NCBI GenBank assembly: GCA_013204355.1
Contig: JABMOA010000017.1
Coordinates: 1 to 35,043, forward strand
DNA: 35,043 nt
Origin: Candidatus Woesearchaeota archaeon
Lineage (GTDB): Archaea > Nanobdellota > Nanobdellia > Woesearchaeales > GW2011-AR9
Reading direction: 5' to 3'
Shown here piece by piece: positions 3,661 through 30,051 of the stretch; positions within the stretch are counted from its first letter, which is position 1; every line of letters starts with the position of its first letter. The position numbers were made by a program, and so were the translations under genes. Under the pieces are notes generated by a model. The model saw only the letters and a list, made by a program, of their open reading frames with translations. It was not told the DNA's origin and searched no databases.

Positions 3661-3678
3661 GGCTAATATGAAACCCTC
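3661..3678. repeat. solo copy of the terminal arm of palindromic element B
   Basis: GGCTAATATGAAACCCTC is 18/18 identical to 24959-24976. A 6-nt spacer then TTTGT follows in both places, after which similarity is lost. Confidence 0.7.
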
Positions 3679-3711
3679 AAAAAATTTGTTTTTTTGATAG
3701 CTTAAGGTTAT

Positions 3712-14118: not shown

Positions 14119-15153
14119 TTATCCTAGTTTTTGGTCATACTTAATACGGCTATACATAATCATAGAACCATACTCTAAAATATGATCCGAAAATAAATCC
14201 TGAAATTCTTGTACAACATCATGAAACTCATAATTATTCTGGGTAAATATACTTATTTTATAATTCCACATACCAATATAACTTGCTATGAATGCAATAT
14301 TAGGGTGGTTTTTACAAAATGTAAATAATTTTTCTTGATCTACATTTTTTAATTTTAATAACAAAGAATGCCATTGATACCCCATTAGATTAAAATTTAA
14401 TACTACTAAAAATTGCTTAATTACTTTAGATTTAATCAAAGTACGTAAACGATTAATAACTGTGTTTGGCGCAAGTTTTGTTTTTTTCGCAACACCTAAA
14501 ATGGGCATTCTTGAATTTAAGGATAATGCTTTTAATATTTTTTTGTCCACCAAATCCACTTCCTTTTTTGACTGTTTCAGATTGAATTCTTTCATAAAAG
14601 AACTCCCCTTAGCATCTTTAATATTATCTAATTGTGCTTGTAATTCTTTATTCCCAACAATTGCGCCTCTACCCGTGTATTGAGTCGTTACTTGTAATAA
14701 TATATCATAAGAGACTACCAAATTGTCAAATTTTGAAATAAACTCACTAAAAAAAGAATCAAAATGTTCTATTTCTATAGTTGCAACCTCAAACTGAAGA
14801 TTATAATATCCCCCACAATTTTGTACTAAGACAACATTAGAAGAATGATCTAAGTAGGTAATTATTTCCTTTTCCCTTTCAAGATTTTTAAGTCTTAAAA
14901 ATACAGTAAAAATGGTGTAACCTAAACTCCTCAGATTTATATAGGTAATAAATCCAGAAATTACTTTTTGTTCACTTAATTTTTTTATTCTATAACTTAC
15001 AATGTCGCGTGAGATTTTTATTTTTTTAGCAATAGCATTAGTTGAAATCCGTGCATTTTGACCAAGAAGGTATAAAATCTTACGATCTATGAGGTCTAGT
15101 TTAACTGTAGGATTAATATTTTCTATTTGTCCTTTAAAATATTTTTTACTCAT
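14119..15153 (-). CDS. tandem (double) Lrp/AsnC-family transcriptional regulator
   Basis: 344 aa with two HTH_AsnC-like modules (KLDLIDRKILYLLGQNARISTNAIAKKIKISRDIVSYRIKKL and VDLVDKKILKALSLNSRMPILGVAKKTKLAPNTVINRLRTL), each followed by a RAM-like domain. Paralogous to 19843..20916. Confidence 0.8.
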   Translation of the reverse strand: MSKKYFKGQIENINPTVKLDLIDRKILYLLGQNARISTNAIAKKIKISRDIVSYRIKKLSEQKVISGFITYINLRSLGYTIFTVFLRLKNLEREKEIITYLDHSSNVVLVQNCGGYYNLQFEVATIEIEHFDSFFSEFISKFDNLVVSYDILLQVTTQYTGRGAIVGNKELQAQLDNIKDAKGSSFMKEFNLKQSKKEVDLVDKKILKALSLNSRMPILGVAKKTKLAPNTVINRLRTLIKSKVIKQFLVVLNFNLMGYQWHSLLLKLKNVDQEKLFTFCKNHPNIAFIASYIGMWNYKISIFTQNNYEFHDVVQEFQDLFSDHILEYGSMIMYSRIKYDQKLG

Positions 15154-15249
15154 TTTGAAGACAGAAGATTCAGTTTAATATAAAGATTTTGCAAAAAAGA
15201 GGGTTTTTTAAGACAATATCTAATATATTACTAAAAATATAGTAATTAA

Positions 15250-16035
15250 ATGAAAAAAACACTATCTGCAATTATCGGAGGAGTTGTCCTAACAAGCACC
15301 ATCGCATTAGGACAATATGGCATACCACATTTTTTTCCAAAACAAAGGTATAAACAAACAGGTATTGAAACAAAAGTTGCTAATGGACATACATTTGCAA
15401 TACCACTTATTGTAGATTCATGGCAAATACCCTATCAGAATTTATTAAACCAAACACAAAACATCATGAGTGAAGCTGACGGAAAAACAATGAGTTATGG
15501 TTGTGATCAAGGGGTAACAGTACTAAAATTTGGTATTGGGTGTTATGAGAAAGAGTGTTCAAGAACAGAGTATGTTGAAGAATGTACTACATTTAAAGGA
15601 TGTGACCCAAGTGCAGGTTATTGCCCCTCAAACGCGAGAATGGATAGAGAAGTATGCAAAGATGTAAAGAGATGTGTGGAATACGGTTCAAAACAAAAAT
15701 TTTACATTCCTTACGACAGCATGAGTAGTATTTCAAAAGGAAATTCTTTTTTCTCTGATGATGACTTAATTATTAGTACAGATAATGGAGAGGAGTTTAG
15801 TTTTGATTTAAATAGTTCAAGTTCAGCGAGAACTGCGGTGTCTTTGTTAAATATACTAAAATCTGCAAGTTACCATATGGAACAACATACAGAACAAATT
15901 GAAATACAAAGAGATTCAATCTTAGCAAGTTATAATGTTGCTTTAAGACAAGAGAATTTAAATAAAATAAAGGCTGAAGAAAAGTTTAAAAAACTTCCTT
16001 ATGCTGCGAAACAAAAAAATTTGAATGGTGAATAA
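15250..16035 (+). CDS. secreted Cys-rich hypothetical protein
   Basis: 261 aa with a signal-peptide-like N-terminus (MKKTLSAIIGGVVLTSTIALG). A central segment holds 10 Cys within about 70 residues, followed by a C-terminal helical region. Divergent from the tandem-Lrp gene. Confidence 0.6.
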   Translation: MKKTLSAIIGGVVLTSTIALGQYGIPHFFPKQRYKQTGIETKVANGHTFAIPLIVDSWQIPYQNLLNQTQNIMSEADGKTMSYGCDQGVTVLKFGIGCYEKECSRTEYVEECTTFKGCDPSAGYCPSNARMDREVCKDVKRCVEYGSKQKFYIPYDSMSSISKGNSFFSDDDLIISTDNGEEFSFDLNSSSSARTAVSLLNILKSASYHMEQHTEQIEIQRDSILASYNVALRQENLNKIKAEEKFKKLPYAAKQKNLNGE

Positions 16036-16037
16036 AA

Positions 16038-16742
16038 ATGAGACAAAACAAAAGCACAATTGAACAACATTTTAATAATTTAGCTTTTCAAGAACCTACA
16101 AGACCTAACGAATTTTTAAATGATAGGTATAGAGAATGTGCAAAAGCAACAATTGCATCTTTAGGTGTAGGGCTTGCAGGCGCAATCGGCACTTATTTTT
16201 TTGAAAATGACGTTCTTGAAATTTTAGCAGGATTTAGTACAATTACAGGATTAGTAATGGGAGGAACTTTAAGTAGTGAGCTTATCAAAATCAAAAAATT
16301 AAAACCTCAGTTAGAAGAAAAATTAAAAGAAGAACATGACCAGACTAGTTTTTATGAATTAGATGGAAAATTTACAACAAACCCAACCATTGCTGAAAAA
16401 ACTTATGGGCAACCAGTTTATTTGATTGATCAAAATTCAAAAATACCATCCCTTAGCACGCCCCATCTTTTATTTATAGGTCCTCATGAAGAAGGTTCTT
16501 ATCAAAGAAGATTAAGTCAAAAAGTTACTTTTGAAAATATTATTGGACCAGATTATTCTGATAAAATTGAACATACAACTATTTATGAGAACATCTTCTG
16601 TAGATTCCCAGATGAATCAGAAATTAATTTGGTATGTGAACCATCTAATGTTCCTATGATTAAGGAAAAATTTAATGGTGCAATGATTTTATCTGTAAAT
16701 AATGGAACAAAAGCATTTAAGAGATATTTTATCTCTTCTTAA
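16038..16742 (+). CDS. hypothetical membrane protein (two TM helices + C-terminal soluble domain)
   Basis: 234 aa, starting 2 nt after the preceding stop. Hydrophobic helices lie around ATIASLGVGLAGAIGTYFF and LAGFSTITGLVMGGTL. Confidence 0.55.
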   Translation: MRQNKSTIEQHFNNLAFQEPTRPNEFLNDRYRECAKATIASLGVGLAGAIGTYFFENDVLEILAGFSTITGLVMGGTLSSELIKIKKLKPQLEEKLKEEHDQTSFYELDGKFTTNPTIAEKTYGQPVYLIDQNSKIPSLSTPHLLFIGPHEEGSYQRRLSQKVTFENIIGPDYSDKIEHTTIYENIFCRFPDESEINLVCEPSNVPMIKEKFNGAMILSVNNGTKAFKRYFISS

Positions 16743-16748
16743 TTAAAT

Positions 16749-16805
16749 TTATTTTTTCAACCACCCAACTTCTTCACTAGTTAACTCCAATTCCTCCAGA
16801 ATGTA
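16749..16805 (-). pseudogene. relic 3' end of a replication factor C large-subunit gene
   Basis: The minus strand reads ..YILEELELTSEEVGWLKK*, versus the true rfcL C-terminus ..EIAHELELTGEEVGWLRK*. 35/45 nt are identical, including a perfect 16-mer TCAACCACCCAACTTC (16757-16772 = 17533-17548). Confidence 0.65.
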
Positions 16806-16891
16806 GAAGTTGATGGAGATCTATTAAGGTTTTTGCGTAATTTATAAAAATGAAGCAAAAGTTTTTTAAAAGGATTCAATAAATAATTTTT

Positions 16892-17509
16892 ATGGGAGTA
16901 ATGGAAACAGTTGGAGATTCAAATTCAAAGTATTTAGACGCACTTCATAGGCATACAGAAGAAAGTCAGTCTTCTCGATGGAACAATTATCGTGAAATAC
17001 CTCTTTTAAACCTAAGAAATGATAATTCTTTGACAACAAGAATTACAGTTAGTCTAATTAATAGATGCGTTAATTCAGATTACATTAAAAATGCTCGATA
17101 TCTCATGATAGGTTATGCTCGGCGTGGATTTCATGATGCTGAAAATGTCTTAGTGTTCAACCCTTCTGATTTTGAAACTGTACGTATTCCATTTGCACAA
17201 CCCATTCCAGATTTAGATGTATATGCACCTACGTTTCAAGCAGTACAAGAAATGGGAGAAGAACGCCCCCTTGTTACACCACGAGGAGAACATTATATTG
17301 ATATTCCTGTTTTAAAAAGATGGTTCTGGGGAGCATATTCCACTAATATTGGAGATTTTTGGGAACAATTTAATGACTCATCTCCAAAGAATCATGCAGA
17401 AGACAATCATATTTCATTCTATACCAGACGTTCTGATGGACGTGTTGCCTGGATGCACTTTCCCGTTTCTTCAGAATCTTCAATTGAAGAGAAAGTAGGT
17501 AGAATTTAA
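16892..17509 (+). CDS. hypothetical protein (orphan cargo between the two rfcL 3'-end copies)
   Basis: ATG-initiated 205-aa ORF. No family recognised and no TM segments. Confidence 0.5.
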   Translation: MGVMETVGDSNSKYLDALHRHTEESQSSRWNNYREIPLLNLRNDNSLTTRITVSLINRCVNSDYIKNARYLMIGYARRGFHDAENVLVFNPSDFETVRIPFAQPIPDLDVYAPTFQAVQEMGEERPLVTPRGEHYIDIPVLKRWFWGAYSTNIGDFWEQFNDSSPKNHAEDNHISFYTRRSDGRVAWMHFPVSSESSIEEKVGRI

Positions 17510-18739: not shown

Positions 18740-18753
18740 GTTTGCGGTAATAC

Positions 18754-18875
18754 GGCTCTGTCCCAAAAGGAATAAAAATGTATACTAGGGCACGGCACCT
18801 TAGATTTGTTCACACGTGAACAAATATGCCTCCATTGGCGCTAGTATACAAATTAGCTCCTTTTGGGACAGCACT
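18754..18875 (-). mobile_element. palindromic MITE-like element, copy A (strand = orientation homologous to B+ and C+)
   Basis: Nested inverted repeats: CTGTCCCAAAAGGA/TCCTTTTGGGACAG, TGTATACTAG/CTAGTATACA and ATTTGTTCAC/GTGAACAAAT. Flanked by the direct repeat GGTAATAC (18746-18753 and 18876-18883). Its core is homologous to copies B and C. Confidence 0.6.
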
Positions 18876-18884
18876 GGTAATACA

Positions 18885-19088
18885 TTAAAGATTCTTAAGA
18901 TTCCAAAGAACCAAAAATATACTAATAATAGAAAAAAACATGATTATCTTATTTTCTAATTTATTTCCAAGACCAATGTCAATAAAATTAAAATTAGGGT
19001 TAATTAACGCGACAATAAACGTCAAGGAGAAAATAAATAATAATGAAGCCAAAAGAATGAACACTTTTTTACGGTATAGATGAGACAT
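18885..19088 (-). CDS. possible small membrane protein (67 aa, two hydrophobic helices)
   Basis: ORF trimmed to the internal ATG (MSHLYRKKVFILLASLLFIFSL...). Extremely AT-rich and hydrophobic, so it could be spurious. Confidence 0.3.
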   Translation of the reverse strand: MSHLYRKKVFILLASLLFIFSLTFIVALINPNFNFIDIGLGNKLENKIIMFFSIISIFLVLWNLKNL

Positions 19089-19171
19089 AATGATAGGATT
19101 TTGGTAATATATCTTAAATGTATGCGTTATAAAAAGCACATGTTCGAATATCGTACATTTTGAGAATAAGG

Positions 19172-19181
19172 TTTATAAAAA
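19172..19181 (+). promoter_or_regulatory. putative TATA box for the 19202 gene
   Basis: TTTATAAAAA centred about 25 nt upstream of the ATG at 19202. Confidence 0.4.
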
Positions 19182-19201
19182 AGAACATAAAATTTATCTC
19201 C

Positions 19202-19777
19202 ATGTTACAGAAGCTAGATGATCTCATCTTAACAATGCATGAAAAAGTGGTGGACCTTGCAATCAAAACTGTTGGCGCAGATAAATATTCATGTGCGACA
19301 CAAGCCAATATTGCGGGAACTCTTGGACTTTTAAGTTTTGGTGGAACCCTATTAGAAAGCGGCATTAGAAACTCCTCTCCTTTTTTAATTAGCATGGCAT
19401 GCGTTATAGGACCTATATCTATTATTTCTTATAAAAAAGGTTTAAGGGATATCAAACCACAAAAAAAAATTGATGAAAATAACGCATTAAAAGGAACACG
19501 CCAAATCCCTCAATATAACACAACCCGCCCATTTTTTTGGAGTTTAGGAACTTATGCCATACTCTCTAGTCCATTTTCAGAAACTATTCCAACATTATTA
19601 ATAGCTGGTTCCCTTGGGTTATACTTATCTGGCAATGAAAGTAGGAAATATTTTTTAAATGTTGAAACACCTTCCGGAACGACAGATTCTTTATTAGATA
19701 AATTAAAAGCAGGAATCTCAAATATTGGATCAGAACCAGTTAGGGTTTCTGCTTTGAAATATGAAACCAAAGAATAG
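19202..19777 (+). CDS. hypothetical integral membrane protein
   Basis: The track ORF starts at a TTG (19160); the first ATG (MLQKLDDL) has a TATA box at the right spacing. About 4 hydrophobic segments. No family recognised. Confidence 0.5.
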   Translation: MLQKLDDLILTMHEKVVDLAIKTVGADKYSCATQANIAGTLGLLSFGGTLLESGIRNSSPFLISMACVIGPISIISYKKGLRDIKPQKKIDENNALKGTRQIPQYNTTRPFFWSLGTYAILSSPFSETIPTLLIAGSLGLYLSGNESRKYFLNVETPSGTTDSLLDKLKAGISNIGSEPVRVSALKYETKE

Positions 19778-19842
19778 GAAAAATCATTTATTTATTCAGA
19801 AATATAATTGGTTCAAACTATGTTCGAATTCAAAAATACGAC

Positions 19843-20916
19843 TCATTTCACTTTTTGATAATATTTTAATTGATTAAACATTATAAAAGTGTCATAATAC
19901 ATAATATGATCTGCAAATTCCTTTCTGATTTGTTGTAGGATTGCATGAAATTCAGCATTTGTCCTAGCATAAACGTTACATTGATAATCCCATTTTCCTA
20001 AAAATCGCATGTACCAACTCATATTAGGATGATTTTTAATAAATTCAGTGAATCTTTCATGATCTAAATTTTTCATTTTGAATAGAATATGCCACCATTG
20101 ATAACCTAATTGCGTTGGTGAATATTGGATAAAAAAACGTTTTATAACACCAGCCAAAATCATGTCCTTAATTCTATGTTCAATACTAATTGGTGCTAAT
20201 GATATTTTGTGAGAAATGTGTTTAATATTTGAGGTGGAGTCTAATTTTAAAATATCTAAGATAGAGAGATCCTTATCATCTAAATTTATTTTTTCATTCA
20301 TGTTATTATTTATTTTGTGATTTAAATTTTTCTTTTTAAGAAATTCTTTTTGGAAGGTAGAACCTTTATGTTCCCCCACAATTTTTACCTTTTTTACATC
20401 ATCTTCATGAAGAATCATCCATAACACAAAAATATCCTCTTCTACAACATCCAATACTTCAAATTTTTCAAGAATAGAAGAATACTTTTCAACTATTTTT
20501 CCAAATTTATCTATAAACTCCATTTGGTTCCTAACACTCAAAACAAATTGAAGATCATAACTTCCAGAACAAGTAACTATGGTTGTAACCTCAGTAAAAT
20601 TAAATAAAAAAGCAATGATATCTTGATCATTATCCAAATTTTTAAATTTAAAATAAACACGATATTGATGGAATCCCAATTTTTTAGGATCAAGCATAGC
20701 AGCATATCCATGTACAAAATCTATTTCTTCCATTCTTTTAATCCTATATGAAACCTTTTCACGTGATATTAAAAGAAGTCTACCGATTGTAGTTGGTGAG
20801 AATCGCACATTATTTTCAAGAATATAAAGAATTTTACGATCTATTAAATCTAATTTAATTAGTTTTTTCTCAAAAGAATATTCCTTGATCTGTCCAATAA
20901 AATCTAATTTTGCCAT
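19843..20916 (-). CDS. tandem (double) Lrp/AsnC-family transcriptional regulator, paralog of 14119..15153
   Basis: KLDLIDRKILYILENNVRFSPTTIGRLLLISREKVSYRIKRM plus a second HTH module (DDKDLSILDILKLDSTSNIKHISHKISLAPISIEHRIKDM). The C-terminus FIKNHPNMSWY..W.Y......N.EFH parallels the other copy. An alternative GTG start lies at 20934. Confidence 0.8.
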   Translation of the reverse strand: MAKLDFIGQIKEYSFEKKLIKLDLIDRKILYILENNVRFSPTTIGRLLLISREKVSYRIKRMEEIDFVHGYAAMLDPKKLGFHQYRVYFKFKNLDNDQDIIAFLFNFTEVTTIVTCSGSYDLQFVLSVRNQMEFIDKFGKIVEKYSSILEKFEVLDVVEEDIFVLWMILHEDDVKKVKIVGEHKGSTFQKEFLKKKNLNHKINNNMNEKINLDDKDLSILDILKLDSTSNIKHISHKISLAPISIEHRIKDMILAGVIKRFFIQYSPTQLGYQWWHILFKMKNLDHERFTEFIKNHPNMSWYMRFLGKWDYQCNVYARTNAEFHAILQQIRKEFADHIMYYDTFIMFNQLKYYQKVK

Positions 20917-21041
20917 ATTTTTTACTAAAAACACATATCCCTTAACTATTTATCGTTATTCGTGGTTTTTTTGGGTTCTTATTTCTTATATTTGTTTGGA
21001 GTTTACCATTCTAGAAAATCAATTACTTTTGGAGGAAACAA

Positions 21042-21401
21042 ATGAAAAAAACAATTGAAACAATGATCCTAGCAATGTCTGTTACCCTGGCTTTAGGATG
21101 TGACTCTCAAGGAGAAAAAGAATCATGTTCTATTATAGATCAAAGTAAAGATAATTGTTATAAAAATGATGGAACAAATAAAGACGGGTCATTAAGTTAT
21201 ATCAATGCATGCTTTGGAGATCAAAAATGTAAATCTACAAAACCAATCGGCACATCTGATGACTATTGTTTTAGTGAATGTTACACACCAACTTGTTGTA
21301 GTGAGAGAAACTGCGATACAGATCAATACTGTACTACAAATCCCTATGATTCTAACCAATGTATTTGCGAATATAAACCAATCCGTGATAAAGGAAATTA
21401 A
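21042..21401 (+). CDS. secreted or lipid-anchored Cys-rich small protein
   Basis: 119 aa. GGAGG lies upstream of the ATG. Signal peptide ends in a lipobox-like LALGC; the mature part has about 16 further Cys (CCSERNC, CICEY). Confidence 0.6.
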   Translation: MKKTIETMILAMSVTLALGCDSQGEKESCSIIDQSKDNCYKNDGTNKDGSLSYINACFGDQKCKSTKPIGTSDDYCFSECYTPTCCSERNCDTDQYCTTNPYDSNQCICEYKPIRDKGN

Positions 21402-21422
21402 AAATAAGGGAAATTGAAAAAA

Positions 21423-21779
21423 ATGTCATATGAAGATAAATTAGAACCTCTAGAAAAAATTGGAGCCGGCACTGTAGCAATTTTATATGGTACATTACTA
21501 AGTGTGGTACTTTATTTGAGTATTCACACTAAGGAAATCAAAAACCCTACTATAACTAACGTGGGAACATATCACTTAGTATTCTATGGTGAAACTATAT
21601 ATCTCAATGAACTACAAAAAACAATTAATGTAGATTTCCACGATAAATGTTTAAGACCTGCAGACAAATATTTCAAAGAAAAAGATAAGGATATAATTGG
21701 TCAAAAAATAAAATCTATTACGTATAGATATGGTTTTTCTGGGCCTTGTGATTACATTGAAGATTTAGTGCTAGAATAA
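21423..21779 (+). CDS. small membrane-anchored two-Cys protein, paralog 1
   Basis: One TM helix (GAGTVAILYGTLLSVVLYL) followed by an approximately 80-aa domain with INVDFHDKCL ... ITY ... CDYIEDL. The track ORF starts at a TTG (21414). Confidence 0.5.
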   Translation: MSYEDKLEPLEKIGAGTVAILYGTLLSVVLYLSIHTKEIKNPTITNVGTYHLVFYGETIYLNELQKTINVDFHDKCLRPADKYFKEKDKDIIGQKIKSITYRYGFSGPCDYIEDLVLE

Positions 21780-21854
21780 ATAATTTAATATTAAAAACAG
21801 AAAAAGAAACAAATCAAAAAGAAACAAACAAAAAATATAAAACCAATAATAAAT

Positions 21855-22193
21855 ATGAAACATACACAAAGATTATCAAAACTTGGAAAAGATATTTTGA
21901 TTCTTGGCACTTTAGGATTAATAGGATATGGAATTTATGAGGTAGGATTTGCGTCAAAAAACATACAAAATTCTGTTGTTGAAGAGATAGGAGATTATAG
22001 AGCATATATTGATCTTGAAAATCCAAGCCTTGATGAAACACATCATTACATAAAAATAGATAATCATTCTAGATGTTTAGATCTTGGAGATTATAATTCT
22101 CAACACATTGTAAAAAAAGATCAATTTAGTGTGATCACATATACTCCTAAAATATTTCAAAGATGTGATGAGATTATATACCTTCAAAAATAA
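21855..22193 (+). CDS. small membrane-anchored two-Cys protein, paralog 2
   Basis: One TM helix (ILILGTLGLIGYGIY) followed by IKIDNHSRCL ... ITY ... CDEIIYL. Same architecture as 21423 and 23498. Confidence 0.5.
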   Translation: MKHTQRLSKLGKDILILGTLGLIGYGIYEVGFASKNIQNSVVEEIGDYRAYIDLENPSLDETHHYIKIDNHSRCLDLGDYNSQHIVKKDQFSVITYTPKIFQRCDEIIYLQK

Positions 22194-22264
22194 AATGAAA
22201 ATCTTAAAACACAATTACCAAACAAAGCAAGATCCGAGATATTAAACTAATTTAGGAATAAAAA

Positions 22265-23335
22265 ATGATAACCTCAATTAATAATTATGAAAGAATTCCT
22301 GGACAATGGTTAACTATTGAAACTTTACATGCACCACAACTATTACCACAATTACAAAAACCAACGATTATTAAATATGCTTCACAGAATCCACAAAAAG
22401 GGTCACGATGGATTGTAACACTACAACATGCTAATGAATCTAGTGGATTATATGCTTGTGTGGACACATGGAAATATTTAAATGAAAAAGATATCAGTTT
22501 AGATTATGATTTATATTTTCTTATAATGAATGGATATGGAGCCATTGGAAAAGAAAATAGCGCAATTTTTAGTCAAAGGTTTACATCAGATCAAATAGAC
22601 TTCAACAGAATTTGGTATGATTACAAGGATAATATCCAAAAAAAGATTCCCGCAATACAAAAAACACAAATTGAACAATTAACACAAATAATTAATAATT
22701 CTAACCCGGAATATATTATAGATGTTCACAATACAACTGGTAATAATCAACCATTAGGGTTTATTTCAGAAGGAAAAGATGAACAATTAATCTGTTTTCT
22801 AGTTGACCACATTGTACATTCAAATAATATCCCTGGATCACTACAAGATAGATTTGCACATATTTGTGAATCAATAACAATTGAATGCGGAAAAACAGGA
22901 ACTTTAGCATCATTACATGTAGCCACAAAAATATTTCACCAATTTATCCATTACAAAGGACAAAAAAAAGAAGATGAAAAAAGATATTACAGGTATAATG
23001 ATATAGGAAGGATTGTGATCAAAGATAATATAGAATTTAATTTTTATAACGGCCAGAAACAAAAAAAAGAAGATAACACATTTTGGATTAGAGAGGACAT
23101 TGAGGATTTCAATCAGTCTCAAATAGAACCTTTTTCCCTATTAGGACATTATAATGGACCAGGATTACCTGTGATTTTTTTAAAAAATGATCAAGATCTA
23201 ACGTCATCCTATATTTTAAAAGATGGAAACAAAGTTATAATTAAAGAAATGCGTTATGGGTTATTATTTTCAAAAAATAAAACAAATGTCCAAAATTCAG
23301 AATTAGGTTATTTAGCTCAAGGAAAATTTAGCTAA
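22265..23335 (+). CDS. AstE/AspA-family zinc hydrolase (succinylglutamate desuccinylase / aspartoacylase-like)
   Basis: 356 aa. Collinear matches to aspartoacylase motifs, from memory: LQHANESSG (GTHGNELTG), DFNRIW (DLNRIF), IIDVHNTTGN (FDLHNTTSN) and ITIECGKTG (GIEVGPQ). Confidence 0.7.
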   Translation: MITSINNYERIPGQWLTIETLHAPQLLPQLQKPTIIKYASQNPQKGSRWIVTLQHANESSGLYACVDTWKYLNEKDISLDYDLYFLIMNGYGAIGKENSAIFSQRFTSDQIDFNRIWYDYKDNIQKKIPAIQKTQIEQLTQIINNSNPEYIIDVHNTTGNNQPLGFISEGKDEQLICFLVDHIVHSNNIPGSLQDRFAHICESITIECGKTGTLASLHVATKIFHQFIHYKGQKKEDEKRYYRYNDIGRIVIKDNIEFNFYNGQKQKKEDNTFWIREDIEDFNQSQIEPFSLLGHYNGPGLPVIFLKNDQDLTSSYILKDGNKVIIKEMRYGLLFSKNKTNVQNSELGYLAQGKFS

Positions 23336-23497
23336 AAATCGGCCATATAGAAATGCTGAAGTTATTAATGCAATAATTAATTAACACTGTCTAAAAAAAT
23401 AACATTTAAATAATTATTTAAGAAACATCAATAAGAAGAAAAAGAAGAAGAAGTTAAAATTGACGAAGAAATTGTAAAAAAGAAAAAATGATTCAAA

Positions 23498-23875
23498 ATG
23501 ATTCAAAACAATAAATTTGTAACAACGGTACTAGCATTAACTCTTGGTTTAACCTATTGTATTTATGATTTTAAGGATAACAGGAGAATACAAGAAGATA
23601 CAGTTACCAATTATTACTCTACCAATGTTCCTGGAAAAAACTTAGAACCTTATAAAATTATAAAAATATTTCTTGAAAATCATGATCGTTGTTTATTTAC
23701 TACAAACTATCTATTTGAACAGATATCCCACCAAGAAATAAATAAGGGGGATTCACTCACAGAGATCATCTATCACCACAATCACTTTTTGAGCCCTATT
23801 GGATCTTTAGATAAAGTTGCATTCCAAAATGACTGCGACCGCTTAATAAATTTTGAATTGAAAAAGGTAAAATGA
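23498..23875 (+). CDS. small membrane-anchored two-Cys protein, paralog 3
   Basis: One TM helix (FVTTVLALTLGLTYCIY) followed by IKIFLENHDRCL ... IIY ... CDRLINF. Confidence 0.5.
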   Translation: MIQNNKFVTTVLALTLGLTYCIYDFKDNRRIQEDTVTNYYSTNVPGKNLEPYKIIKIFLENHDRCLFTTNYLFEQISHQEINKGDSLTEIIYHHNHFLSPIGSLDKVAFQNDCDRLINFELKKVK

Positions 23876-23921
23876 TCTCAAAAAATAACACCTAAGAAAT
23901 TAAAACCTAAATTTTAAAATC

Positions 23922-24902
23922 CTATCTCCCTGTTCTCATGTCAATCCGATGATCGTATTCATCTACGATTTCCCCTACGATTTCTTCAAGAACATCTTCC
24001 AATGTAACAATGCCTGTAAATTTACTTACCTTACCATGAACAATAAATAGATGCATTTTTTTCTTCTTAAACAAATTCAGAACTGTGCCCAATTTATGTA
24101 TTTCACTAATTGTATGAACTTCGTGCCTCATTATTTCTCCTGCTGTCGCATTAGAATTTATTTTGACAGAAATTAAGTCTTTAACATAAAGTATACCAAC
24201 GACTTTATTTTTAGTGTTACCATACACAGGAATTCTTGAATGCCCCATTTTATAAATTTCCTTACGTAATTCTTTATTTAAAATTGCAGATTTAGGTAAA
24301 CTAAAGACATTAATTTTGGGTGTCATGACTGATTTTACCTTCATTGAAGAAAATTCCAATCCTCCTTCAAGAATTTCAAACTCATGTTTATGAACATCCG
24401 TTTCTAATTTTCTTTGTTCTTTTAAAATTAATTTAAATTCTTTCCGGGAAAAAATTGTAGGTAATTCTCCACCTAATGCCCTATCTAAAATAAGAGCTAT
24501 AGGTTTAGAAATAGGATATAGTAAAATCAAAAAAAACCACACAATCCATGTGATCTTTGCCCCAAACTTTAAAGCGTGTCTTGAAAAGACTGCTTGAGGA
24601 ATAATTTCTCCAAAAATTACAATTAAACCTGTTGCCATAAATCCCGCAACAACACCTGTAACGATTGAACCTAAAAATAATGCTAATGCTGAGTTTACAG
24701 CAACATTCCCTAAAAGTAATGTAATTAAAAGAAGATTTCCTTTTTTTCTTAAAGGATAAACACGCATTGCCGCTTTATTACCAAGTTTAACTCGTCTTCT
24801 CAAACTAAATAAATCTAAACTCATTAGTCCTAAACTTAAACCAGAAAAAAGCCCAGATAAGATTAATATACAAACAACAATAATGTATGTTACAAAGGTC
24901 AT
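23922..24902 (-). CDS. DUF21 + CBS-pair membrane protein (CNNM/CorC-type putative Mg2+/Co2+ transporter, hemolysin-family)
   Basis: 326 aa. DUF21 N-terminus (ILSGLFSGLSLGLMSLD), 4 TM segments, IFGEIIPQ, then two CBS motifs. No C-terminal CorC_HlyC domain is visible. Confidence 0.85.
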   Translation of the reverse strand: MTFVTYIIVVCILILSGLFSGLSLGLMSLDLFSLRRRVKLGNKAAMRVYPLRKKGNLLLITLLLGNVAVNSALALFLGSIVTGVVAGFMATGLIVIFGEIIPQAVFSRHALKFGAKITWIVWFFLILLYPISKPIALILDRALGGELPTIFSRKEFKLILKEQRKLETDVHKHEFEILEGGLEFSSMKVKSVMTPKINVFSLPKSAILNKELRKEIYKMGHSRIPVYGNTKNKVVGILYVKDLISVKINSNATAGEIMRHEVHTISEIHKLGTVLNLFKKKKMHLFIVHGKVSKFTGIVTLEDVLEEIVGEIVDEYDHRIDMRTGR

Positions 24903-24958
24903 GTTTTTAATTAATAAAAATTAAGAAGTATATAATGGTTACTATTAACTCCACACCA

Positions 24959-25089
24959 GGCTAATATGAAACCCTCTTTTTCTTTTGTATTAGCGCCCTG
25001 GCGTAGCCGAGGCATATGGGATAGCAAAGCTATCCCCATAATAAATGCCGTGCCCTAATACAAAGATTGTTGAGGGCTTTATATTAGCC
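24959..25089 (+). mobile_element. palindromic MITE-like element, copy B
   Basis: Arms GGCTAATATGAAACCCTC / GAGGGCTTTATATTAGCC, TTTTGTATTAG / CTAATACAAAG and GGGATAGC / GCTATCCC. Flanked by a perfect 9-bp direct repeat TCCACACCA (24950-24958 and 25090-25098). Confidence 0.65.
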
Positions 25090-25101
25090 TCCACACCAAT
25101 A

Positions 25102-25112
25102 ATATATATAAA
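25102..25112 (+). promoter_or_regulatory. putative TATA box of guaB
   Basis: ATATATATAAA centred about 28 nt upstream of the ATG at 25135. Confidence 0.45.
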
Positions 25113-25134
25113 CCAAAACACTTCAATTTCTGAC

Positions 25135-26553
25135 ATGGAAACTGGCTTGACGTTTGCTGACGTATTACTTGTTCCAAAGAGAACACCATTAAATTCTAGA
25201 AGTGAGGCTGATACAAAAACAAGATTCACAAGAAATATTCCATTACACATTCCCTTAGTATCTTCTAATATGGCAACGGTCACTGAATATCGTATGGCCA
25301 TTGCAATGGCAAGAGAAGGCGGCCTTGGAATCATCCATCAATTTAATACAATAGAAGAACAAGTTGCAGAAGTGAAGAAAGTTAAACGTTCTACCAGTTA
25401 TGTGATTGAAGATCCAATTACCGTACCTCCACACATTACAATTAAAGAAGCAATTGAAACCATGAATAAAACGGGTGTTACGAGTCTTCTTGTTTCTGAA
25501 AACAAACAGTTAAAAGGTATATTTACACACCGTGATTATTTATTTGAACAAGATGATTTAAAATTAATTTCTGCTGTGATGACACCATTTGAAAAAATGA
25601 TTACAGCAAATCCACATATAGAAATGACTGAAGCAAAACGCATTCTTCATGAACACAGAATTGAAAAGTTACCATTGATTGAAAACGGGGAAGTAAGAGG
25701 ATTAATCACAACAAAAGATATCCAGAAACTTGAACATTGGCCACATTGTACACGTGATGAGAAAGGAAGATTAAGAGTCGGCGCAGCAATAGGCGTAAAA
25801 GATTCTTTAGAACGTGCACATGCATTAATTAAAAGCGGCGTTGATGTTCTTGTTCTGGATGTTGCACACGCACATTCAGATTTAGTCATTGAAACATTAA
25901 AAGCATTAAAAGCAAATTTTCAAATTGATATTATGGTTGGAAATATTGCAACAGCTAATGCAGCAAGAGATTTGATTGAAGCAGGTGCAGATGGTTTGAA
26001 AATTGGGATTGGACCTTCCCCTGTATGTACAACAAGAATTATTTCAGGATCTGGCGTTCCACAAATTTCTGCAATCATAGATGTTGTCAAAATTGCAAAC
26101 CAATATAATATTCCCATAACTGCAGATGGTGGCATGAAATATCCAGGTGATGTTGCAAAAGCAATTGCAGCAGGAGCTTCTACAATTTATTCAGGAAATT
26201 TCTTTGCAGGTACAGATGAAGCGCCTGGAGTTATTATGATGAAAGATGGAAAACGCTACAAGAGATATATGGGTTCAGCTTCATATGATAGTGGTCATGA
26301 AAGAAATGAACATGCAAATAAGAAAAAAGTACGAGAGCGTTTAGATATTTTTGTAGAAGGAGTTTCAACATTAGTTGATTATAAAGGGCCTGTTGAAGAT
26401 GTTATTAAGAGTATTATTAAAGGATTGCAAAGTGGTATAAGTTATTGTGGTGCAAGAACCATTAAAGAAATGCAAGCGAATGCAGAATTTATAAAAATTA
26501 CAGCAGCTGGGTGGAAAGAATCACAATCCAGAGGGGAGAAGTTAAGTGAATGA
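25135..26553 (+). CDS. guaB: IMP dehydrogenase
   Basis: METGLTFADVLLVPKRT N-terminus, an internal CBS pair, the catalytic loop GIGPSPVCTTR, and GGMKYPGDVAKAIAAGA. Start moved from 25045 to 25135 because the extension runs through element B and IMPDHs begin at ..GLTFDDVLL. Confidence 0.93.
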   Translation: METGLTFADVLLVPKRTPLNSRSEADTKTRFTRNIPLHIPLVSSNMATVTEYRMAIAMAREGGLGIIHQFNTIEEQVAEVKKVKRSTSYVIEDPITVPPHITIKEAIETMNKTGVTSLLVSENKQLKGIFTHRDYLFEQDDLKLISAVMTPFEKMITANPHIEMTEAKRILHEHRIEKLPLIENGEVRGLITTKDIQKLEHWPHCTRDEKGRLRVGAAIGVKDSLERAHALIKSGVDVLVLDVAHAHSDLVIETLKALKANFQIDIMVGNIATANAARDLIEAGADGLKIGIGPSPVCTTRIISGSGVPQISAIIDVVKIANQYNIPITADGGMKYPGDVAKAIAAGASTIYSGNFFAGTDEAPGVIMMKDGKRYKRYMGSASYDSGHERNEHANKKKVRERLDIFVEGVSTLVDYKGPVEDVIKSIIKGLQSGISYCGARTIKEMQANAEFIKITAAGWKESQSRGEKLSE

Positions 26554-29866: not shown

Positions 29867-30051
29867 GGCTTTGTAGAATTGCTTTATTAATAACACCTTT
29901 AAATAAATTATTTGTATGTGGGTTAATAGTACCACAGGAGGCGCATTTGTAAGTTTACGAACAAATCTACCGCGCCGTGTACTATTAACATGGAACATAG
30001 AAATGATTTACCCTCAAGTGTTATGTCTTTAAATAGCATTTCTACAGAGCC
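29867..30051 (+). mobile_element. palindromic MITE-like element, copy C
   Basis: Arms GGCTTTGTAGAATTGC / GCATTTCTACAGAGCC, TTAATAGTAC / GTACTATTAA and ATTTGT / ACAAAT. Core homologous to A and B. Flanked by ATTGATT (29859-29865 and 30053-30059), each 1 nt from the terminus. Confidence 0.55.

Follow-up and report, generated by a model that had tools for sequence, protein, structure and literature searches.

MITEs are defined as elements of less than 500 bp that carry terminal repeats, are flanked by direct repeats in young copies, occupy AT-rich intergenic targets and form stable stem-loops (PMC10969869). Prokaryotic MITEs of the stem-loop kind have been described as Correia (Neisseria), ERIC/IRU and QMITE2 (Coxiella) (PMC10969869, PMC3184786). 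The described archaeal MITEs (Sulfolobus SM1-SM4, Halobacterium, Haloquadratum) are non-autonomous, have the ends of known insertion sequences, and receive their transposase in trans from these. A census of 18,091 archaeal MITEs placed one Woesearchaeal genome among those with the highest densities, at 105 MITEs per Mb (PMC11602168). On the whole, the MITEs of archaea have been poorly characterised, and those of DPANN lineages scarcely at all; DPANN genomes are small (~1 Mb) and tightly packed.

The repeated hairpins analysed here resemble Correia, ERIC/IRU and QMITE2 in being ~100-200 bp long, non-coding and intergenic, in having AT-rich targets, terminal inverted repeats and target direct repeats (7-9 bp in QMITE2), and in being multi-copy, polymorphic for insertion between close strains and predicted to form one long hairpin. 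Size variants of ERIC arise by insertions at fixed internal points, and those of the present elements likewise differ by extra sequence at fixed internal points. Unlike these bacterial elements, they reside in a DPANN archaeon, have a duplication of 8-9 bp that is not TA, and show no sequence similarity to them; the conserved part is a GC-rich asymmetric centre, combined with three terminal repeats. RNase III/E processing, an IHF site and promoter activity are features of the comparison MITEs. They are likewise non-autonomous as the archaeal MITEs are, but no parent was found for the Woesearchaeal family. The covariance model described below and a contig scan gave four copies on the 55-kb source contig, a density of the same order as 105 MITEs per Mb (PMC11602168). 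We consider it likely that the elements are copies of a small non-coding mobile foldback MITE family, the core of which is not a host RNA gene. The observations behind this reading are insertion polymorphism, target-site duplications, conservation of the terminal repeat across genomes, multiple copies and compensatory conservation of the hairpin.

The window (the whole stretch of 35,043 nt that was analysed) is part of the JGI metagenome contig Ga0335110_1832552 (55,208 bp). It is AT-rich (G+C ~31%) and archaeal in gene content, with genes for RFC, GlyRS, ValRS, IMPDH, and exosome and proteasome subunits; the homologues of RFC and MutS are named in the sources as Woesearchaeota or Nanoarchaeota. 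Three foldback elements (A, B and C), all intergenic, and a truncated relative were located at the following positions:

18754-18875, minus strand: element A, a 122-nt foldback and full A-type MITE; terminal arms CTGTCCCAAAAGGA, complementary at 14/14 positions (inverted-repeat search)
18777-18851, minus strand: core of A; covariance model 70.1 bits, E = 9e-17 (plus strand 20.6 bits)
18849-18838, minus strand: stem of A, GTATACTAG.GC; return stem at 18791-18780
18837-18831, minus strand: 5' loop of A, CAATGGA
18830-18826 and 18798-18794, minus strand: 5-bp helix of A, GGCAT / GTGCC
18825-18804, minus strand: apical hairpin of A
18803-18799, minus strand: bulge of A, CTAAG; the GT is at 18793-18792
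18746-18753: left target-site duplication of A, GGTAATAC on the plus strand, identical to 18876-18883
18876-18883: right target-site duplication of A, identical to the left copy
24959-25089, plus strand: element B, a 131-nt foldback and B-type MITE; terminal inverted repeat GGCTAATATGAAACCCTC / GAGGGCTTTATATTAGCC
24983-25065, plus strand: core of B; covariance model 84.8 bits, E = 6e-21
24984-24997 and 25052-25065, plus strand: stem of B
5' loop of B, plus strand: contains the small hairpin GGC-GTA-GCC
25011-25015 and 25045-25049, plus strand: 5-bp helix of B, GGCAT / ATGCC
25040-25044, plus strand: bulge of B, AATAA; the GT is at 25050-25051
24950-24958: left target-site duplication of B, TCCACACCA, matching 25090-25098 at 9/9 positions
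25090-25098: right target-site duplication of B, 9/9 against the left copy
~29904-30010, plus strand: element C, a ~107-nt foldback with outer arms of its own, TAAATTATTTGTATGT / ACATAGAAATGATTTA (13/15 alike), and without clear duplication
29919-29992, plus strand: core of C; covariance model 66.9 bits, E = 7e-16
29922-29932 and 29979-29989, plus strand: stem of C, GTTAATAGTAC
29933-29939, plus strand: loop of C, CACAGGA
29940-29944 and 29972-29976, plus strand: 5-bp helix of C, GGCGC / GCGCC
29967-29971, plus strand: bulge of C, CTACC; the GT is at 29977-29978
3661-3705, plus strand: truncated relative, in which the left terminal repeat of the B type, GGCTAATATGAAACCCTC, is exact and precedes an A6/T7 mini-hairpin; neither core nor right arm

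The preliminary description had reported a layout shared by the three elements, and every detail of it (loops, 5-bp helix, 5-nt bulge and GT) could be located in A, B and C. Beyond that description, we found the outward extension of the elements as terminal inverted repeats, the target-site duplications, a further copy (D) and the fragment at 3661-3705. Each of the two helix patterns has a single occurrence in the window, where 0.02 and 0.00 would be expected. The predicted RNA fold of A has an energy of -59 kcal/mol (z = -8.3), and the z-scores of A, B and C against shuffled sequences range from -5 to -8. The longest open reading frame of IMPDH starts at an ATG at 25045, inside B; this spurious upstream start is the sole overlap between an open reading frame and the elements, and the 472-aa IMPDH of relatives fits a start at 25136. 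Automatic gene calls may wrongly extend IMPDH into B at 25045-25135.

Four copies were added to those of the window: D shares their contig, and E, F and G belong to other Woesearchaeota assemblies. D (L005 5838-6023; found by a regular-expression scan of the contig flanks) is of B type and lies upstream of the window, ~9.5 kb from its start. Scans of public collections with sequence patterns revealed E and F on JGI metagenome contigs (Ga0233441/Ga0233436 and Ga0233431) and G at a contig end in the Woesearchaeota MAG SI054_bin25, adjoining a cysteine desulfurase gene. Element sizes range from 107 to 193 bp. The four layers of each copy are its terminal inverted repeats, an internal loop rich in T, a second stem and a GC-rich asymmetric centre. 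In the centre, a 5' loop with GA as its last bases is followed by the 5-bp helix, a tip hairpin that varies, a bulge of 5 nt and the GT. B, D, E, F and G make up the B type and have the terminal inverted repeat GGCTAATATGAAA in common across loci and assemblies, their ends being GGCTAATATGAAA...TTTCATATTAGCC. This repeat forms 18 pairs, with 98.9% paired in the five copies, which also have a T-rich 6x6 internal loop, the stem TTTGTATTAGCGCC / GCCCTAATACAAA and the core. The A type has the stem and core in common with the B type, but its ends differ (CTGTCCCAAAAGGA). C has only the core and part of the tip hairpin of A in common with the others, and carries a third kind of outer arm. One core is thus found in three terminal frames. 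The preliminary description had argued that a plain transposon end needs no such interior, and indeed the core is kept inside three different terminal frames.

Among the other sequences encountered in these searches, a ~150-nt locally GC-rich segment beside D (L005 6040-6200), between the 3' end of a helicase gene and the GARS promoter, showed no Rfam match and fold z-scores of 0.2 and -1.5 against shuffles. The first metagenome pattern scan gave no real copy. A Clostridia match (L003) was GC-rich coding DNA, and 18 viral matches all fell within one phage gene. Plasmid and phage collections contained no match. Four matches to the terminal repeat in viral contigs were coding and at chance level, and its occurrences in the full-text literature were primers only.

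The solo B-type left repeat at 3661-3678 is exact over 18 nt and joined directly to the mini-hairpin CCCTCAAAAAATTTGTTTTTTTGATAGC. The A6/T7 mini-hairpin of this fragment (3661-3705) recurs within the 5' loop of D, and its tail TGATAGCTT matches the extra bases at the right end of F. These sequence matches suggest a shuffling of modules between elements. The fragment folds no better than its shuffles.

Target-site duplications of 8-9 bp flank A (8/8, GTATTACC), B (9/9, TCCACACCA), D (8/9, ATTTTATTC / ATTTCATTC) and E (9/9, GTTAAAACG). The exceptions are F, which has none, C, which has none that is clear, and G, which is cut by the contig end. Close relatives have empty sites exactly at the insertion points of A, B and F. 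For A, the relative L033 (RFC 90% identical) has a single TTATTACC (minus-strand reading), directly in front of the conserved promoter region of RFC, where the window has GTATTACC on both sides of A. For B, the spacer upstream of IMPDH in L033 has a single TGGGGTGGA (reverse strand), where the window has TGGTGTGGA on both sides of B. Compared with L051, F represents an insertion of 200 nt, the flanks being 99% identical. The family is active, as strains with 98% identical MutS differ by this insertion. The copy of F is followed by 9-10 bases, TGATAGCTTG (L013 4881-4889), which the empty site lacks and which do not copy the target; they have a duplication-like length and the wrong sequence. A is clearly young, with perfect arms and a perfect duplication.

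In the orthologous spacers of relatives with 83-91% identical RFC or 88-98% identical MutS, the elements were absent and no conserved synteny was found. A scan with the covariance model gave no copy in ~260 kb from relatives (148 + 76 + 36 kb), of which 148 kb came from RFC relatives (83-91% identical, with the same gene neighbourhood) and 112 kb from MutS relatives. The spacer orthologous to that of C is ~100 nt long in L043 and contains no element. In L033 (4790-4850) and L034, this spacer holds a different small palindrome, ATATAGACTAGTCCGTAA...TTACGGACTAGTATAT, together with a duplicated AAGCGAAC motif; small palindromic insertions seem to have landed in it repeatedly.

The preliminary description had set up a transposon as the alternative that would refute its reading, and on this point it has to be reversed: the 8-9 bp duplications, the empty sites of A, B and F, and the 260 kb without a copy indicate that the elements are transposons. 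They are non-coding and shorter than ~500 bp, have terminal inverted repeats and target-site duplications, and occur as dispersed copies with presence/absence polymorphism, as MITEs do. In the loci examined, no transposase or other coding capacity was found in or beside the copies, and no autonomous insertion sequence with matching ends was seen. A nested origin, with a core-only element inserted into older palindromes, was considered and rejected, as no convincing inner duplications were found.

The seven copies were aligned for an analysis of structure conservation; because MAFFT misplaced the long 5' loops, those of D, E and F were trimmed to 8 nt. In this alignment, 98% of cells are paired and 11 of the 21 pairs show changes on both sides. 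None of 500 shuffles attained any of the main observed measures, and pairing fell to 28-51% in slid-register controls. Over their full length, the five B-type copies form 41 pairs with 99% of cells paired. The preliminary description had noticed compensatory changes in the 5-bp helix of three elements and had proposed a covariation check on more copies; the changes are real and extend to the four further copies (GGCAC/GTGCC in D, E and F; GGCAT/GTGCC in A; GGCAT/ATGCC in B and G; GGCGC/GCGCC in C), and the check supported the pairing. A covariance model built from the seven copies (R1) recovers all of them with E = 1e-9 to 1e-21. In the window it detects exactly A, B and C (E = 1e-16 to 1e-21), and with filters off it gave nothing beyond these three.

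In 7/7 copies, from at least three genomes, the helix is preceded by GA and followed by GT, and the bulge always measures 5 nt. The variable sites are the tip hairpin and the 5' loop. The latter is without an extra hairpin in A and C. In B and G it contains one hairpin of 3 bp, and in D, E and F between one and three longer ones; the insertion in the loop of D is 65 nt long and has two or three small hairpins. Bulge sequences follow the subfamilies, with CTAAG/CTACC in A and C and AATAA/AATAG/AATGG in B, D, E and F. This grouping looks like shared descent rather than free variation, and would fit an explanation in which the asymmetry has no function, the elements descending recently from one master and their arms being kept complementary solely by template-switching correction. 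Sequence turnover and the insertion of small hairpins are seen at the tips and in the 5' loop, where an extruded hairpin is single-stranded, and would also fit. However, the tips and outer arms have almost fully diverged between types while the helix, GA, GT and bulge length are unchanged, and unselected palindromes normally decay. We therefore regard a functionless asymmetry as improbable.

Compensatory changes in a repeated hairpin are insufficient alone to identify an RNA gene, and covariation cannot decide between RNA and DNA because a DNA quasi-palindrome shows covariation too. The preliminary description had proposed the elements as a candidate structured RNA or as hairpins possibly bound as single-stranded DNA, and had noted wobble pairs specific to one strand (A minus, B plus, C plus). 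In the RNA version, the core would be a functional structured RNA riding on MITEs, either a small RNA or an element acting in cis at the 3' end or on stability. It would be transcribed from this strand, with selection at the RNA level keeping the fold. The strong covariation, the fixed junction elements (GA, GT and the 5-nt bulge) beside peripheral hairpins of varying length, and the path of helix changes on this strand from C-G through U·G to U-A speak for such an RNA. Bacterial MITE transcripts with regulatory hairpins are also known, namely Correia with RNase III and ERIC with RNase E (PMC10969869). The strand signals themselves are divided. In curated helices of the B type, G·U cells on this strand number 11 and A·C cells 2, corresponding to ~8-9 against 2 independent events, and the minimum-energy folds of the two strands have 24 against 11 G·U pairs in its favour. 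A strict count, restricted to single non-Watson-Crick positions flanked by Watson-Crick pairs, gave 7 against 4 (p = 0.55). As RNA, this strand folds better by 5-7 kcal/mol in 4/7 copies, but the opposite strand is equal or slightly better in 3/7, and with DNA energy parameters the two strands fold equally well. The claimed strand specificity is thus present in the curated helices and is lost in the strict count and in the DNA folds; the G·T versus A·C strand bias is only suggestive.

Genomic position was read for promoters and terminators by eye. TATA-like boxes lie ~25-38 nt before the start codons in the flanks of A, B and C, which places these elements upstream of the neighbouring promoters. 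No promoter-like or TATA-like box common to the A, B and C types was found by this inspection. Most of the copies are upstream of promoter-like boxes of adjoining genes. B, E and F are each situated between two divergent genes and outside the TATA-like boxes in these flanks; C follows a T5/T8/T4 run resembling an archaeal terminator, and D is antisense to both neighbours. A alone has the position of a 3'-end element: it lies 10 nt downstream of a co-oriented stop codon, and T5/T4 runs follow the core. Taken together, the positions of the elements argue against co-transcription.

A search of the window revealed no tRNA or tmRNA and no Rfam match at gathering score, and permissive Rfam scans of A, D and F returned only weak matches to plant-miRNA or sRNA hairpins. 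The preliminary description had not recognised the motif as tRNA, C/D, H/ACA, SRP or RNase P RNA, in agreement with the lack of a matching Rfam family. Both strands of A (18750-18880) gave a weak match to Rfam MIR1862 (25.7 bits, gathering score 84, E = 0.007), a rice miRNA derived from a Stowaway MITE; the match takes in GUCCCAAAA...UUUUGGGAC. We rejected this identity, as the GTCCCAAAA similarity is a chance one and the duplication of A is 8 bp, not TA; the match is probably a generic long-hairpin match.

Known RNA motifs were also compared with the core and rejected. In a K-turn (L7Ae-binding), the essential G·A pair at position 1 would be missing, as the strand opposite GA is GU in 7/7 copies. 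A bulge-helix-bulge differs in the helix, which is 5 bp here and not 4, and in the bulges, which are 5 nt and 5 to >70 nt and not 3. Regarding archaeal H/ACA RNA, the ACA after the stem is base-paired in the outer arms of A-F and replaced by GTA with a compensating change in G, the 3' side of the loop consists of GU alone, and there is no K-turn. The 11-nt tetraloop receptor, the hammerhead three-way junction and group II domain V each fail on a defining base or spacing. A and C are without the second hairpin, and the bulge sequence is not conserved.

The interpretation of the preliminary description survives in the conserved, covarying structure and in a possible strand bias, but no Rfam match, conserved synteny or shared promoter was found. 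A functional RNA riding on the MITEs is unlikely in our assessment, given the lack of an Rfam family even at permissive thresholds, the absence of the elements from close relatives, the contexts of B, C, D, E and F, and the strict wobble count and strand folds given above. There is no evidence for an RNA gene, and the elements are not demonstrated as one.

The same asymmetry could be read at the level of single-stranded DNA, the hairpin being recognised by a strand-specific enzyme such as an HUH/Y1 transposase (IS200/IS605, REP-RAYT) or an integron-like recombinase. REP/BIME-RAYT and the end hairpins of IS200/IS605 are imperfect intergenic palindromes with strand-specific irregularities, as are the present elements, and are thought to act as folded single strands. 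They are, however, 20-40 nt long, with a conserved tetranucleotide, no target duplication and a co-occurring Y1 transposase gene, whereas the elements here are 107-193 nt long, have duplications of 8-9 bp and have no such gene nearby. Integron attC sites (57-141 bp, recognised on one strand) are also imperfect palindromes with a fixed asymmetry and a variable terminal structure; the present elements differ in lacking R''/R' sites, same-direction cassette arrays and an integrase, and in having target duplications. The fixed extrahelical bases and variable tip thus resemble attC and IS200/IS605 end hairpins, the wobble bias is modest but present, and F was inserted without a duplication. On the other side, single-strand HUH transposition and site-specific recombination do not produce target duplications, and four copies have 8-9 bp duplications of unrelated sequence, those of A and B having been checked against empty sites. 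No conserved target tetranucleotide was found, and genes for RAYT, TnpA and integrase are absent from the 55-kb contig. A derivative of REP/RAYT or IS200/IS605 was rejected on the duplications and on the lack of a Y1 gene in the 55 kb, and an attC site on the lack of R''/R' core sites (RYYYAAC / GTTRRRY, which GTTAATA in C fails) and of a cassette array, A being inverted relative to B and C among housekeeping genes. Recognition as single-stranded DNA by such an enzyme is, in consequence, very improbable.

The mobile GC clusters of yeast mitochondrial DNA (PMC4478555) offer an analogy only. They have no coding capacity and, as GC-rich mini-elements that form hairpins, have spread in the intergenic AT-rich DNA of a small genome, as have the present elements. 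They are 30-60 bp long with short fixed flanking repeats and belong to an unrelated host, with unrelated sequence.

Returning to the MITE reading, this appears to be a new foldback-type family with a conserved GC-rich asymmetric core. We infer that a hypothetical DDE-type transposase encoded elsewhere would bind the terminal repeats and make a cut with an 8-9 bp stagger in AT-rich spacers just upstream of gene promoters, into which the element would be pasted, leaving the flanking duplications. Repeats of the 8-9 bp type occur in the IS1, IS4, IS256 and IS1595 groups, and the IS1 and IS1595 groups have GG...-type ends together with 8-9 bp repeats. Snap-back of the quasi-palindrome might bring the two ends together, which could be the reason that the foldback is kept. 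The GC-rich centre may serve as a nucleation clamp within an element that is AT-rich elsewhere, and the loop and bulge would break its perfect symmetry. Arm-to-arm template switching, combined with selection among copies for mobility, would keep the arms complementary.

Several observations stand against the MITE reading. No autonomous parent was seen in the loci examined and the transposase is hypothetical; F carries 9-10 extra bases instead of a duplication. The centre is shared and the ends differ, which is the reverse of the usual conserved ends and free interior, and the GA, the GT and the bulge length do not vary among the seven copies. The wobble preference for one strand is not predicted by a purely double-stranded mechanism. 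The core may have a single-strand role, as RNA or single-stranded DNA, because it occurs in three terminal frames and A is young. In a broader form of this idea, the core would be a portable module acting single-stranded (RNA or one DNA strand) that was captured or retained by at least three terminal frames, and we give it a small but appreciable probability. If it were true, MITEs would be disseminating, among DPANN genomes, a structured ligand of an archaeal protein. The unusual feature of the family is the conserved structured centre within interchangeable ends, which provides a reasonable test case for selection on foldback structure in mobile DNA.

Copies of the family land 45-90 nt from start codons, next to promoters, and could alter gene expression. 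They could also break assemblies; two Logan assemblies of the same organism have breaks inside B (at 24987) and ~12 nt past the end of C.

Close relatives lack the 6.1 kb between A and B (18884-24949) and have IMPDH and RFC side by side. The genes of this segment code for a double-HTH Lrp/AsnC-like protein, a CNNM/CBS protein and several small proteins predicted to be secreted or located in the membrane. A remnant of ~30 codons from the 5' end of CNNM persists in L033, from which we infer that the relatives deleted the segment. A composite transposon formed by A and B around the 6.1 kb was rejected on the same remnant, which indicates loss in the relatives, and because each element has its own matched duplication. 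The regions 14119-17509 and 19843-23875 encode two paralogous proteins of ~350 aa with two AsnC-type HTH domains each, and each paralogue is followed by a cluster of small proteins without a Pfam match; the first of these clusters, too, is absent between GlyRS and RFC in relatives. A direct repeat of these paralogues (D2) is 72% identical between 14297-14382 and 20021-20106.
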